Below the pieces are notes generated by a model, which made no database searches, was not told the DNA's origin, and worked only from the letters and a program-made list of their open reading frames with translations. The position numbers were made by a program, and so were the translations under genes. Positions 41,488-45,329 of a stretch of 58,622 nt of DNA are shown one piece after another. Origin of the DNA: an uncultured Actinomycetes bacterium (GTDB lineage Bacteria > Actinomycetota > Actinomycetes > UBA12327); NCBI GenBank assembly GCA_903920865.1, contig CAIXNN010000060.1, forward strand, positions 1 to 58,622. The letters run 5' to 3'. Position 1 is the stretch's first letter, and every line of letters starts with the position of its first letter.

Positions 41488-44400
41488 TTAGTGAGTACGG
41501 CGCGCGAGGCGACGAGTCCCAACGCCTAGACCCACGAGCAGCATGCCCAGGATCGCGGTAGGAATCACCAAGTCGGCACCAGTCTTCGGTAGGGGGCTAC
41601 CAGCTGTGTCAGCCACACCGCCACCAGCGCCACCACCGTTGTCAACCGGAGTGCCCAGTTCGACACCAGCGGTAGAGACAACATCCTGCTTGCCAGTTAC
41701 GGCCGGAACCGCAGCAGCAGAGGTGCGCACCCGGAATGGGCTTGATCCGCCACTGCTATCTGGCGAGAGGACCGGCGTTGAAATAACACGGAACTCATTG
41801 GTCAAGTCATACTCGCCCGGAAGCAGAGTTGCCTGGCAGACAAAGCTCCAGCCGCCCTCGGGGTAAATGATCCCTAGGTCCTGCGAACGAGCCAACCAGG
41901 TTCCAGCATTCTTGCCACCAGTGTCGGCAGTGAACGCAACGTTTTCGGACCCACCGGTGAAGGCGCCATCGGCCAGTACATCTGCATCACTGATCGGAGC
42001 GGCAAAGGAGTACGGGCTGGTTGGGTTGTAGTTCACACACTTCATGCCGTTGAAGATGGAATCGCGGTTGGCCTTGCTCAGACCCTTAGATTCATTGGAG
42101 AAGTAGTCATAGACCGTCACCTGTTGTGGCGTGGTGGAGACATTGTCAACGAACATCCGGAAGGTCTTCAAGGTAGGAACTTCCAGACGGCCCAAGTTGT
42201 CAAACTTGCGGTAGTTCGTTCCATCCTCATTCGTGATGGCCTTGAACGGCAACAGGTCTGAATCTTCGGTTGCGATTTCAACAATCACTTCGTTTGACTG
42301 AGCTGAAATCGGCCCAAGTCCGGTGGTCCCATTAACCGTGGCCTTGTCAAAGATCGAGTTCTTTGCAACCTGCGCATCAGTTAGGGATGTGGGAACCAAA
42401 AGATCGCAGTAGAGCCACAGGTCCTGACCTGGAGCCAAAACGATGGAACCAATTGCGGCACCCTGGTTGAACGAGGCAGTCGAGCCATAGCTCGGCGCGC
42501 TACTGGTGCCATCGCCACCCACGCGACAGTTAGTCAAACTGCTTTCGTCCAAGCTGCTTGTCACCGACGTGCCGTACTGAGGACCGAAGTTCAAGTCATC
42601 GTTCAAGGAGATGCCGCTGATTGGCAGGGTTCCCGTGTTGGTGACTTGGTAGCGGTAGGTCACGACCTTGCCACGGGGGCGAATGACGGTCTTGAACCAC
42701 AGCTTGTCCGGGTTGTTTACCGAAACACTGGCCTTCTTAACCACAGTCAAGCCAGCAGTCAAGGCAATATTGGCTGGGTTGTCCACCGGGTTTGACGTCG
42801 TTGGGTCAGTGTCTGAACTATCAACACTGGCTTGGTTTGTCATCGTAAAGATTGACGGGTTGGAAGGAAGTCCTTGCGTGTCAACAGTGACCACAAACTG
42901 AACTTGACGGTGCTCACCTGGCTGCATCAGACCCAACGCCCACTCCACAGTGTGGTTGCTGTTGGTCAAAGTCACAACGCAGGTGCTGTCGACGGTGACA
43001 TCGGATGCGCCGTCGTTGCAAACAGCCGACGATGGCTTGTAGGTAACTAAGCCAGATCCAGTGAAGTTGGCGTCATAGCCCGGAAGAACATCGCTGACCA
43101 CGACATTGCGTGCGTTAGCCAAGTTGGTCTCAGGGGCGGTGACATCAAGGGTGTAGGTGATCTCGGAACCAAAGGTCGTGATCGTCTCTGATGAAGTTGG
43201 GTTGTTCGCCTTAGTGATCTCAAGCGCCACTGGCGTACATGAGGAGGCCGAAGTCGGGTAATCAATGAATACCTTTTCGGTCTCATGCGCTGGGGTTGAG
43301 GCTAGAGCGTGGAGACGCAGTCCCTGACGAATGGAGGCTGGCGTGATGTCATGTCCATCCGAATGCAGGACAACCTGGATTTCCGAGAAGTCCGGCGAAT
43401 CGAAGGACGGGTAGGTCTTGGTCGTTCCATCGTCGCTAAATCCTGGCCATGGAATTGAGGTGAAGGACGCCTCACCCGTGGAATCAGCCGAAGTGCTGAC
43501 TGCACCAGAGTAATCCGGGGTTTGTGGGACGTAGTTGATGTAAACCAAGTTTCCATTGCGGTCATAGATATCCATGGTGACGGTGTCGCCGTCGGTGAAT
43601 CCACCACCAGAGACATCAAAGGTTGGCGTTCCGTCGTCACAGACAGCGCGTGGCTCAGCAGCGGCGATATCGACAACGTTGGTGACAACCTCAGACTTCA
43701 CATCATCTTCCGAACCGGTCTGGTTCGAGGAGGCGTGGGCCTGGTTGAGGATGTCCAAGGTGGTCGGCGGTGCAGCGATAGCTTGCGAAGGCACCTTGAC
43801 TGTGATCGTGACAGTAGCCGAAGTACCAGTGGTGATCGTGCCCAAATTTGCGGTGACCTTGTGGGTACCCGCAGAGTACGTCGCACACGAGGCGATCACA
43901 GCGGCGCTGGAATCTTTACACACCACTGAATTCAAACCATCAGCAAGATTTGTCAGTCCTGATGTGTGGTCGGCGTCGTAGCCCGGAAGGATGTCAGTAA
44001 CGACAACGCCGGTCTGGTCAATGGCTCCAGTCGCCGAAGCGGTAATGGTGTAGGTAATTTCGCTGTTGAAACCGGTCAGGTGAGCAGCTTCTACAGGGTC
44101 ATTGGTCTTGGAGAGCGTTAGCGTGCCTGTCTTGAAGGTAGTGTCAACACTTGAACAACCAGATGCATAGACGTTGTGGTCTTCGCTGGATGAACCCGAA
44201 CTACGTGGTTGATTCTGAGTCGTTCCGTCCTCAAGACATGCCTCATTGGTCTGCGGGTCAGCGTTACCAGAGTCATCATCGGCAGTAACTGTGACCGTGA
44301 TCGTGCGGCTGGCGCCGGCAACCAAAGATTGAGTCGCGGTGCAGTCGGCTTCATTGTTAACAAAGTCAGGGGTGCAGCTAAAGCCGGTGCCTGAAACGCT

Positions 44401-45204
44401 AACCAAGGTCAAGAAATCAGGAATCGGGTCATAGACCTTGAATCCAGCCGGAGCGGTGTTCTTGTTGTTGGGTGAGGTCACCGCCCCGTCATTGGAAACG
44501 GTCAGGACGTAATGAACGGTCTGACCAGGGCCAACAGGGTTGGCTTCGGTCTGAGACTTCTGGATGTTGATGTCGTAGACAGGAACGATGCAGTGACCGT
44601 ACTTGTCCTTGTGACCGCGATGACCGCGATGACCGCGGTGGTCAGAGTCGCTTGACGAAGGTGAGTTCGAGATCAAGCAGCAGTCGAAAGTGTTTGTGTT
44701 CCCGTGATCCTTGTGCTTCTTCTTGTGCTTGGAGTCTTTGGAGTGACGGTGGTCCTGAGTTGAAACGTTGCTCGGCGTGTTCGTCAAGCAGCAGTCACTG
44801 CTGCTCTTAGTGCCATGTTCGCCTTCGCCCTCAGAAGTAGCAGCGATTGATGAAGGGCTTGTGGATGGTGGGCAACAGTTGTCGGTGTTGTAACTGTGCT
44901 GGGCGCGAATCGACGAAGGATTGTTGTTCTCATTCTGACCACAGCTGTTGTCGCCACTGTTGTCGCCACTGTTGGCTGACACTGACTTGGAGGAAGCACT
45001 CGGCGAACTTGTCGGGCTTGGTGACTTGCCAACGCTGGGGCCACTGGTCGAGGCCGGCGACGACAATGCATCGGGACCGGCTGGCTTGGCATTAGCTGCG
45101 GTTGCTCCCGCACCTGCCGACAATGTAATCAACGCTAAAGCGGCTGCAGCGGCAACAAAGCGCGCGCGCTTGCTTGAGATGGTCAGTGATGTAAACGATG
45201 ACAT
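41488..45204 (-). CDS. Large secreted sortase-anchored (LPKTG) surface protein with DUF11/isopeptide-type Ig-like repeats; putative adhesin
   Basis: Signal peptide ending AANA; Ser/Pro- and His/Lys/Cys-rich N-region. Four repeats of the pattern (I/L)xxxK..(I/V)xYxxxx...D-x-(I/L). C-terminal LPKTG + hydrophobic helix + RRLARR tail. Confidence 0.85.
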   Translation of the reverse strand: MSSFTSLTISSKRARFVAAAAALALITLSAGAGATAANAKPAGPDALSSPASTSGPSVGKSPSPTSSPSASSKSVSANSGDNSGDNSCGQNENNNPSSIRAQHSYNTDNCCPPSTSPSSIAATSEGEGEHGTKSSSDCCLTNTPSNVSTQDHRHSKDSKHKKKHKDHGNTNTFDCCLISNSPSSSDSDHRGHRGHRGHKDKYGHCIVPVYDINIQKSQTEANPVGPGQTVHYVLTVSNDGAVTSPNNKNTAPAGFKVYDPIPDFLTLVSVSGTGFSCTPDFVNNEADCTATQSLVAGASRTITVTVTADDDSGNADPQTNEACLEDGTTQNQPRSSGSSSEDHNVYASGCSSVDTTFKTGTLTLSKTNDPVEAAHLTGFNSEITYTITASATGAIDQTGVVVTDILPGYDADHTSGLTNLADGLNSVVCKDSSAAVIASCATYSAGTHKVTANLGTITTGTSATVTITVKVPSQAIAAPPTTLDILNQAHASSNQTGSEDDVKSEVVTNVVDIAAAEPRAVCDDGTPTFDVSGGGFTDGDTVTMDIYDRNGNLVYINYVPQTPDYSGAVSTSADSTGEASFTSIPWPGFSDDGTTKTYPSFDSPDFSEIQVVLHSDGHDITPASIRQGLRLHALASTPAHETEKVFIDYPTSASSCTPVALEITKANNPTSSETITTFGSEITYTLDVTAPETNLANARNVVVSDVLPGYDANFTGSGLVTYKPSSAVCNDGASDVTVDSTCVVTLTNSNHTVEWALGLMQPGEHRQVQFVVTVDTQGLPSNPSIFTMTNQASVDSSDTDPTTSNPVDNPANIALTAGLTVVKKASVSVNNPDKLWFKTVIRPRGKVVTYRYQVTNTGTLPISGISLNDDLNFGPQYGTSVTSSLDESSLTNCRVGGDGTSSAPSYGSTASFNQGAAIGSIVLAPGQDLWLYCDLLVPTSLTDAQVAKNSIFDKATVNGTTGLGPISAQSNEVIVEIATEDSDLLPFKAITNEDGTNYRKFDNLGRLEVPTLKTFRMFVDNVSTTPQQVTVYDYFSNESKGLSKANRDSIFNGMKCVNYNPTSPYSFAAPISDADVLADGAFTGGSENVAFTADTGGKNAGTWLARSQDLGIIYPEGGWSFVCQATLLPGEYDLTNEFRVISTPVLSPDSSGGSSPFRVRTSAAAVPAVTGKQDVVSTAGVELGTPVDNGGGAGGGVADTAGSPLPKTGADLVIPTAILGMLLVGLGVGTRRLARRTH
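44612..44638 (+). repeat. In-frame 9-nt tandem repeat x3, encoding the (HRG)3 tract on the minus strand
   Basis: TGACCGCGA TGACCGCGA TGACCGCGG. Confidence 0.85.
44945..44974 (+). repeat. In-frame 12-nt tandem repeat x2.5, encoding NSGD-NSGD-NS on the minus strand
   Basis: CTGTTGTCGCCA CTGTTGTCGCCA CTGTTG. Confidence 0.85.
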
Positions 45205-45251
45205 GAAGATCCCTCAGCCAGTTCGATTTTCACGCGAGTTACGTGAAATGC

Positions 45252-45329
45252 GTCGTTGGCCGGTTTCGCTATGGCTCACTTCGGGCTGGGTGCGACCAGA
45301 CAAACCCGAAGGTCAAAGCCTCCTACGAC
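45252..45329 (-). ncRNA. Cyclic di-GMP class II riboswitch aptamer
   Basis: Minus-strand RNA: GUCGUAGG-A-GGC-UUU-GA-C-CUUCGGGUU-UGU-CUGG-UCGC-ACCC-AGCCCGAAG-UGA-GCC-AUA-GCGA-AACCGG-CCAACGAC. It shows P1, a kink-turn (GGC-nnn-GA/UGA-GCC), a 9-bp P3, pseudoknot UCGC/GCGA and AACCG. It ends 47 nt before the ATG at 45204. Confidence 0.85.

Follow-up and report, generated by a model that had tools for sequence, protein, structure and literature searches.

A c-di-GMP-II-type aptamer ahead of a sortase-substrate CLIPPER/DUF11 protein gene in a small-genome freshwater actinobacterium

A close known counterpart of the locus described here is found in Clostridioides difficile, where class II riboswitches for cyclic di-GMP (c-di-GMP) increase adhesins and pili when c-di-GMP is high, as given in the accessible part of PMC11477304. 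That part also states the upregulation of the sortase-anchored surface proteins CD2831 and CD3246 just as it was quoted in a preliminary description of the present DNA, a 58,622-nt stretch from an uncultured Actinomycetes bacterium (contig CAIXNN010000060.1; the whole stretch is referred to as the window). On the minus strand of the window, a c-di-GMP-II-type aptamer of 84 nt (45249..45332) stands directly ahead of the gene for a 1238-aa sortase substrate with DUF11 domains (41488..45204, ATG start in the list of open reading frames, ORFs). A riboswitch-led, sortase-anchored module of the DUF11 type had been proposed in the preliminary description, and the results presented here agree with it, GGDEF, EAL and sortase genes all being present in the genome.

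In the canonical c-di-GMP complex of a class II aptamer (3Q3Z), A69 reads one guanine and G73 the other, A70 intercalates, and A61 forms the ceiling, with the A14-U60 pair stacked against the backbone (PMC13715770). Actinomycetota are reported to favour translational riboswitches (PMC12452182). On the protein side, DUF11 was renamed 'CLIPPER' in a 2025 survey, which placed DUF7507 beside it and determined the structure of one domain, whose isopeptide bond involves Lys715, Asp748 and Asn806 (PMC12617251, available part); for class E sortases, a preference for LAxTG motifs has been described (PMC5148588, in excerpt).

Like C. difficile, the genome studied here combines a c-di-GMP riboswitch on the gene of a predicted sortase-anchored adhesin with a second one on pilin genes (PMC11477304, same part). 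The two systems differ in phylum and in sortase, which is of class E here and of class B in C. difficile, and the present protein has a CLIPPER/DUF11 stalk, whereas CD2831 and CD3246 comprise one collagen-binding protein and one thioester protein. Furthermore, the pilin switch is of class I here and of class II in C. difficile, and the expression platform here is probably translational. Relative to the Rfam families RF03169 and RF01786 (3Q3Z), the aptamer has the same P1-P2-P3 helices with a pseudoknot and the same position in the 5' leader, and its target belongs with those usual for RF03169 in the class, exported and sortase-anchored proteins; neither model was passed comfortably.

Aptamer family, conservation and likely ligand

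The window aptamer scored 40.4 bits on RF03169 (c-di-GMP-II-GAG; gathering cut-off 40), with an E-value of 1.9e-4 for the window and 1.3e-6 genome-wide. The same 84 nt scored 41.5 bits on canonical RF01786 (genome-wide E 8.0e-8), below the gathering cut-off of 53.5 for that model. It was the sole cis-regulatory element identified by Rfam in the window and the sole such match in the genome in the RF03169 and RF01786 searches. Its 3' end lies 44 nt ahead of the adhesin start codon, on the strand of the gene. The alignment to RF01786 was full-length (model positions 1-84), with helices P1, P2 and P3 present and a six-pair pseudoknot P4 that joins the loop of P3 to the 3' strand (GGUCGC with GCGA..CC). 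A structured riboswitch leader had been noted at this place before, and the Rfam match bears this out, the earlier limit at 45329 falling 3 nt short of the 5' end of the aptamer.

Because the Rfam scores were marginal, independent support for the aptamer was sought. It precedes homologous genes in two genomes of the same genus (G001 and G004) and in two of the same family (G006 and G007). In a MAFFT alignment of five aptamers, 89.2% of cells paired, compared with 21.8-47.5% in controls with slid partners, and four pairs in P1 and P3 were compensatory, with both sides changed. The six pseudoknot pairs and the ligand-contact bases were invariant in all five sequences. All six homologous genes with a complete leader carried the aptamer (the window, G001, G004, G006, G007 and the metagenome locus L089, the last at 40.7 bits); this count comprises complete leaders, the homologues G002, G005, L087 and L088 being cut by contig ends and L089 being the only one of the nine loci from the metagenome scan with its leader complete. 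The aptamer and the homologous gene occur together in two contexts, the eno block in the window and G001, and a site between purK and an acyl-CoA dehydrogenase gene in G007; therefore, the two travel together.

These comparisons bear on the possibility that the element is a chance or decayed look-alike without a regulatory role, ahead of a constitutively expressed adhesin gene. The borderline score would fit such a reading, but structure-preserving changes across genera, contact and pseudoknot bases invariant in 5/5 sequences and the same position before homologous genes in both contexts all speak against it, and we consider it very improbable. A set of 46 aptamers was further compared across the class, consisting of the window aptamer and 45 of the 51 matches over the cut-off in other genomes (three matches in unpublished genomes and three for reasons of space were left out). 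The pseudoknot pair covaried in 45 of the 46, GCGA occurring with GGYCGC in 30 and GUGA with GGYCAC in 15, and one sequence was ambiguous.

On the Rfam consensus, the contact residues of 3Q3Z probably correspond to AACCG of GUGCAACCG. At these positions the canonical form reads GUGCAACCG and the GAG variant GCGAGACCG, with G at position 69; the window aptamer reads GCGAAACCG, as do its family members in G001, G004, G006, G007 and L089. The GAG positions, read from the two Rfam consensus lines, are presumably the source of the RF03169 name. At these pseudoknot and ligand positions the window carries GAA and lacks the G at canonical position 69; the canonical contacts are therefore retained, A61, A69, A70 and G73 all being kept in the RF01786 alignment. 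A C68-to-A change in the pseudoknot strand is matched by a G-to-U change in the loop and thus forms a compensated pair. The window aptamer shares A69 with the canonical form and an A-U neighbouring pseudoknot pair with the variant, and, judged by its sequence, it is nearer to the canonical pocket than the label of its best-passing Rfam model suggests. Among the 46 aptamers, 11 were of the GAA type, 32 of the GAG type and three of other types. GAA and GAG aptamers coexist in four genomes (G015, G033, G038 and G046), those of the GAA type being short, at 82-92 nt.

The ligand of the window aptamer is likely to be c-di-GMP. That it senses another cyclic dinucleotide or a related compound would accord with the RF01786 score under the cut-off, with the GAG variant as the best-passing model and with the closing pair of P2, where G-C takes the place of A14-U60; the affinities of an engineered class II aptamer for isomers of cyclic GMP-AMP were shifted by this change (PMC13715770). 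Against another ligand stand the four kept contact bases, the compensated change at position 68 and the c-di-GMP enzymes encoded in the genome, and we judge it quite unlikely. No reported ligand for the RF03169 GAG variant was found in the literature searched, where the variant was met only as a list entry. The family reportedly comes from a 2017 paper on 224 candidate RNAs. In the main text of the paper of that description (PMC5737381), its supplements not being covered, the GAG variant is not discussed.

Leader folding and the likely direction of control

Between the aptamer and the start codon, a hairpin without a U tract (UUUCACG...CGUGAAA, 45228..45248, minus strand) is followed by a UGGCUG segment (45210..45220, minus strand) that reaches into the Shine-Dalgarno (SD) sequence GAGGGA by one base, the first. 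In the free-state minimum free energy (MFE) fold, this segment can pair with CGGCCA of the aptamer, the 3' strand of P4/P1. A CYGGCYG segment and the SD sequence were conserved in the window, G001, G004, G006 and L089, and the alternative helix of CYGGCYG with CGGCC(A) was present in the free-state MFE of 4/4 leaders. In G007, the SD itself (GGGCC) can pair with the same aptamer strand. A hairpin of different sequence occupies the place of the window hairpin in G001, L089 and G007.

The strand sequestered by the ligand-bound fold (G73, P1) is the competitor of the SD-adjacent segment, and hence translational ON logic is indicated. In the proposed mechanism, the transcript of a sortase-anchored fibrillar adhesin would open with the c-di-GMP-II-type aptamer. 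With no ligand, CGGCCA, which holds the G that contacts the ligand as well as the 3' side of P1, would pair with the UGGCUG abutting the SD and close over the small hairpin. Once c-di-GMP is bound, this strand would be tied up in P1 and the pseudoknot, the region bound by the ribosome would become free and translation would rise. At high c-di-GMP, translation is thus most likely switched on.

The same aptamer with the same ligand could instead switch expression off at high c-di-GMP, or act on transcription, for example through Rho access, rather than on ribosome binding. Modelled accessibility in the window leaves room for this, since it barely shifts when the aptamer is enforced (SD from 0.13 to 0.20, AUG from 0.17 to 0.14), and no consistent effect on the SD was seen in the four leaders modelled. 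Moreover, in the window the alternative helix extends no further than the first base of the SD and leaves the SD core uncovered, and the hairpin 3' of the aptamer is structurally conserved and may have a role. The switching duplex was matched or beaten by 121, 72, 86, 41, 95 and 27 of 944 own-genome start regions, its energies falling within the best 3-13%; this statistic and the leader folds give modest support to the direction of switching. What argues against OFF or transcriptional control is the leader itself, in which the hairpin has no U tract and no U-tract terminator was found, together with the sequestration of the SD-adjacent competitor strand by the ligand-bound fold in five leaders and the G007 variant. 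In addition, the start codon became more accessible with the aptamer enforced in 3/4 modelled leaders, the window being the exception, and high c-di-GMP levels induce the adhesins and pili of C. difficile (PMC11477304). We regard the OFF or transcriptional alternative as unlikely and keep translational ON control as the preferred reading. An anti-SD element in P3 (CCCAGCC with GGCUGAGGG) was also considered and rejected: P3 forms with or without ligand, and by eye the complement is lost in G001.

Upstream of the aptamer, the intergenic region at 45333..45535 (minus strand) is a putative promoter region with a -10-like hexamer and two dyad boxes, as read by eye from five leaders. The putative -10 element, CAAGAT or CAGGAT, is conserved about 10 nt 5' of the aptamer; a sigma-70 consensus scan of 40500-46500 returned no promoter site. 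At 45360-45460 (minus strand), 5' of the putative -10, stand two conserved boxes of the form GCC/CCC-N4-GGC/GGG (e.g., AGCCCAACCGGGTG and GACCGAAAGGGGG) with a spacing of about 40 nt. Both boxes are also seen in G001, G004 and G006 and could act as a protein operator and hence as a second layer of control.

The encoded protein and its proposed anchoring to the wall

All coordinates of the protein are on the minus strand. The first segment comprises the start codon and a Sec-type signal peptide, which had been recorded earlier (residues 1-39, 45088..45204); KRAR, a hydrophobic core and ANA-K are recognisable by eye. Then follows a low-complexity Ser/Pro/His region without a Pfam match (residues 40-205, 44590..45087), with NCC/DCC motifs and an HRGHRGHRGH run. 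The stalk begins with DUF11/CLIPPER domain 1 (residues 211-331, 44212..44574; K216, D259, N320), a Pfam match with beta strands in the AlphaFold2 (AF2) model at a predicted local distance difference test score (pLDDT) of about 90. Domain 2 (residues ~350-512, 43669..44157; K366, D404, N487) is likewise seen by Pfam and AF2. It is separated by an unnamed beta domain (residues ~517-615, 43360..43656), which is all-beta in AF2, has rare relatives and gave no Pfam match, from DUF11/CLIPPER domain 3 (residues ~645-813, 42766..43272; K665, D705, N790), identified by Pfam and alignment. A DUF7507/CLIPPER_2 domain assigned by Pfam comes next (residues ~819-978, 42271..42750; K823/K824, D869/D870, D953). 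One or more unnamed C-terminal beta domains (residues ~984-1182, 41659..42255) had no Pfam match and few relatives, with AF2 pLDDT mostly 80-95. The sorting signal occupies 41488..41592. The two beta domains (~517-615 and 984-1182) and the Cys/His-rich N-terminal region are additions to the preliminary description.

DUF11 (PF01345) matched in three stretches with 77.6 bits in total (cut-off 24.6; single domains 35.1, 31.9 and 31.5 bits), DUF7507 (PF24346) matched with 33.2 bits (cut-off 27; 31.5 bits as a single domain), and the NCBIfam model TIGR01451 with 56.5 bits. The preliminary description had counted four DUF11-like immunoglobulin (Ig) repeats; three of these stand as DUF11, while the fourth is DUF7507 by Pfam. 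It had also pointed to late Asn residues typical of isopeptide-bonded domains, and these were found alongside first-strand Lys residues in the three DUF11 domains: N320 (TNEA) with K216, N487 (LNQA) with K366 and N790 (TNQA) with K665. The Lys-Asp-Asn triads of these domains were invariant or nearly so in 11 sequences with 30-88% identity, and that of domain 3 (K665/D705/N790) was invariant in the 11 and in 13 aligned sequences. The order Lys...Asp...Asn is the same as in the CLIPPER/CLIPPER_2 adhesin structure 9IFR (Lys715, Asp748, Asn806), and the residues fit the DUF11 domain solved in the survey with a Lys-Asp-Asn bond (PMC12617251, part consulted). Lys-Asn isopeptide bonds are thus probably formed in the three DUF11 domains.

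As in the CLIPPER adhesins of the survey, the protein combines stalk domains in tandem with a signal peptide and a sorting signal (PMC12617251, same part). It differs in the fourth domain, which has Asp (D953) for Asn at the late position, and in its two beta domains and Cys/His-rich N-terminal region without a named family. AF2 models built on shallow alignments had pLDDT 79.0 for residues 205-830 and 80.9 for residues 812-1200 and were both nearly all-beta. Their best Foldseek matches in the Protein Data Bank (PDB) were Ig-like stalks of LPXTG adhesins (PrgB 8beg, E 1.1e-19), and other matches included antigen I/II C-domains, among them 2wza with isopeptide bonds, SdrD, Cna and integrin legs. 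The Pfam and AlphaFold check suggested for the Ig/DUF11 assignment thus gave DUF11 over the cut-off and nearly all-beta models most like Ig-like adhesin stalks. The family is narrow, with 11 proteins in a search of 5.8 billion sequences. Residues 500-1200 gave 102 matches at E <= 0.001 and seven at E <= 1e-30 among 1.84 billion representatives, most of them covering the DUF11 part only. Within residues 40-205, (D/N)CC-x-x-(S/T)-x-x-PSS motifs are repeated; relatives retain the Cys pairs of this region but have poly-Asp/Ser for the His run. Metal or mineral binding by this Cys/His-rich tip is a guess.

The C-terminal signal consists of LPKTG at residues 1205-1209, a stretch of 20 hydrophobic residues, RRLARRTH and the stop codon, the LPKTG-helix-basic tail that had been recognised before; an NCBIfam scan of the adhesin at E 0.01 gave no sorting-signal match. 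A search of the genome for a sortase, proposed with that earlier observation, yielded one of class E on contig C13 (229.4 bits, cut-off 160); contig C55 carries another sortase-like gene, which is divergent and reached 55.2 bits with the model of class E, against the cut-off of 160. In the substrates of the class E (housekeeping) sortases of Actinobacteria (PMC5148588, in excerpt) the motif is LAxTG; the genome likewise has a class E sortase and orthologues of the protein have LAxTG, while this copy has LPKTG. Across orthologues, the motifs were LPKTG, LPRTG, LAKTG, LANTG, LARTG, LVKTG and LPHTG. A pattern scan of all ORFs of at least 80 aa found three clean sorting signals in the genome, in the adhesin, in a DUF11 giant of 2924 aa on C3 (LAHTG) and in a 232-aa LPKTG protein on C39, and only the 1238-aa adhesin carries the aptamer. 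The giant (C3:16842-25616, plus strand) has at least 14 DUF11 matches and no c-di-GMP aptamer match. In the proposed sequence of events, the adhesin would be exported, cut at LPKTG by the class E sortase and joined to peptidoglycan, and its Ig-like CLIPPER stalk, with three domains probably Lys-Asn bonded, would hold the unnamed beta domains and the Cys/His-rich tip off the wall.

Taken as a whole, the reading of the locus as a c-di-GMP-II-type aptamer acting as a translational ON switch for a wall-anchored adhesin with a CLIPPER stalk is one that we hold with moderate confidence. Several results tell against it. To the aptamer scores, marginal on RF03169 and under the RF01786 cut-off, and the leader modelling described above are added TM-scores to solved adhesin stalks of 0.2-0.35, low globally because the models are multi-domain, and the absence of 9IFR among the Foldseek matches listed. 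A PDB sequence search with the protein gave 0 matches, and a 13-sequence profile searched against the PDB gave only low-complexity CoREST matches and Rab11 at E 0.76. Finally, the protein bears LPKTG against the LAxTG preference of class E sortases (PMC5148588, in excerpt), with both LAxTG and LPxTG among its orthologues.

Genomic setting, distribution in the class and the predicted c-di-GMP circuit

The host genome (1.68 Mb, 92 contigs, completeness 100%, GC-content 55.4%) comes from a lake-dwelling lineage to judge by DNA near-identical to the window in lake-water metagenomes (20 lake or freshwater DNA metagenomes); one homologue of the adhesin bears the source label 'Actinobacteria bacterium'. 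The gene order mfd-lipoprotein-eno is a conserved actinobacterial block. The adhesin gene was confirmed to lie within it, flanked upstream by mfd (46211-49714) and the gene of a 219-aa SurA_N-like protein with the lipobox ISAC (45536-46195), and downstream by eno (enolase, 40080-41372) and the genes of DivIC, DUF501 and Ppx proteins. In G004, the gene of the SurA-like lipoprotein is separated from the riboswitch by a gene similar to the alpha subunit of haem-dependent oxidative N-demethylase (L030 8175-9002, plus strand; 166.6 bits); therefore, the intergenic site tolerates insertions. On the metagenome contig L089, a TPP riboswitch (7103-7215, plus strand; 56.1 bits) lies directly 3' of the adhesin homologue.

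Between the adhesin gene and eno, a strong terminator-like hairpin (41439-41474, minus strand) folds at -44.9 kcal/mol (z = -8.7), equalled in 0/200 shuffles. It corresponds to the terminator placed earlier at 41441-41472; its U tract is weak, and a simple terminator scan made no call there. This hairpin would insulate eno from the adhesin transcript.

RF03169 was found over the cut-off in 22 of the 61 genomes of the class searched (20/57 without four unpublished genomes) and at E <= 0.001 in 29/61 (25/57 without them). The downstream gene was taken as the longest ORF starting no more than 350 nt 3' of the aptamer, a coarse criterion by which some high-GC cases are surely mislabelled. By this rule, an LPxTG or LAxTG motif with a helix and basic tail followed 17 of 45 aptamers outside the host genome, i.e., 16 of 44 genes, one gene having tandem aptamers. 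That gene encodes a 372-aa LPFTG protein behind two RF03169 aptamers in G027 (L042, G027:C66, 71242-71364 and 71391-71509). The co-occurrence of riboswitch and LPxTG genes, to be sought in relatives and metagenomes, was observed in these 16 genes, and all six complete homologue leaders carry the aptamer. Pfam was run on 44 downstream proteins, the window's and 43 others, with the cut G004 fragment left out. DUF11 was found in 11 of them, the window's included, DUF7507 in seven, DUF7927 in six, SpaA in three, Lrp/AsnC in five and the BldD C-terminal domain in two.

BldD is a c-di-GMP-binding developmental regulator of Streptomyces. The two genes with a BldD-like C-terminal domain, L053 (G027) 5462-5974 and L055 (G021) 5458-5991, both on the minus strand, begin 9-26 nt 3' of GAG-type RF03169 aptamers, which suggests RNA-level feedback on a c-di-GMP effector. 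At L044, L045, L049, L057 and L068, RF03169 aptamers lie 126-316 nt 5' of Lrp/AsnC-family genes, compared with the usual 13-25 nt for surface-protein targets; the real target, or the start, may be a different one.

The preliminary description had inferred a convergent or horizontally acquired switch and implied that it was rare in Actinomycetota. Neither view is upheld by the 22/61 genomes with RF03169, the sorting signals in 16/44 genes or the DUF11 domains in 11/44 downstream proteins. The composition of the adhesin gene (GC 55.3%, GC at third codon positions 61.9%) matches its neighbours and the genome, and horizontal transfer was set aside for lack of a compositional signal. The RNA family is already catalogued, and the arrangement recurs widely among relatives and is not a rare acquisition. 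No paper on the pairing of riboswitch and adhesin in Actinomycetota was found in the literature, from which the supplements of PMC5737381 were not covered. Across the class, RF03169 typically stands ahead of sortase-anchored, often DUF11/CLIPPER, proteins, a pattern not found in print.

The genome encodes six GGDEF matches at five loci and three EAL matches. In the window, at 21259-22500 (plus strand), a 1048-aa ORF combines a GGDEF domain (21259-21732; 171 bits) with an EAL domain (230.8 bits), at a distance of about 20 kb to the riboswitch. Elsewhere, a class I c-di-GMP riboswitch (RF01051, 55.5 bits; C36:90060-90137, plus strand; L077 1501-1578) lies directly 5' of two genes whose products carry the N-terminal methylation motif of type IV pilins (L077 1528-2079 and 2195-2680). 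Together with the adhesin aptamer, this gives exactly two c-di-GMP riboswitch matches in the genome, one at pilins and one at the adhesin. The GAA aptamers may be a distinct, functionally tuned class II subtype that reads different c-di-GMP levels or dinucleotides than GAG aptamers, with one GAA adhesin switch and one class I pilin switch making up the whole RNA-level programme from free-living to particle-attached life; this is a speculative extension, and we think it doubtful.

The GAA subtype links the canonical and variant aptamers. A 1.68-Mb freshwater actinobacterium of the plankton type appears to retain a c-di-GMP circuit on surface structures, namely one of its three recognisable sortase substrates and its pilins. 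For the switch between free-living and particle-attached states, which is usually approached by metagenomic correlation alone, this locus offers a molecular handle.

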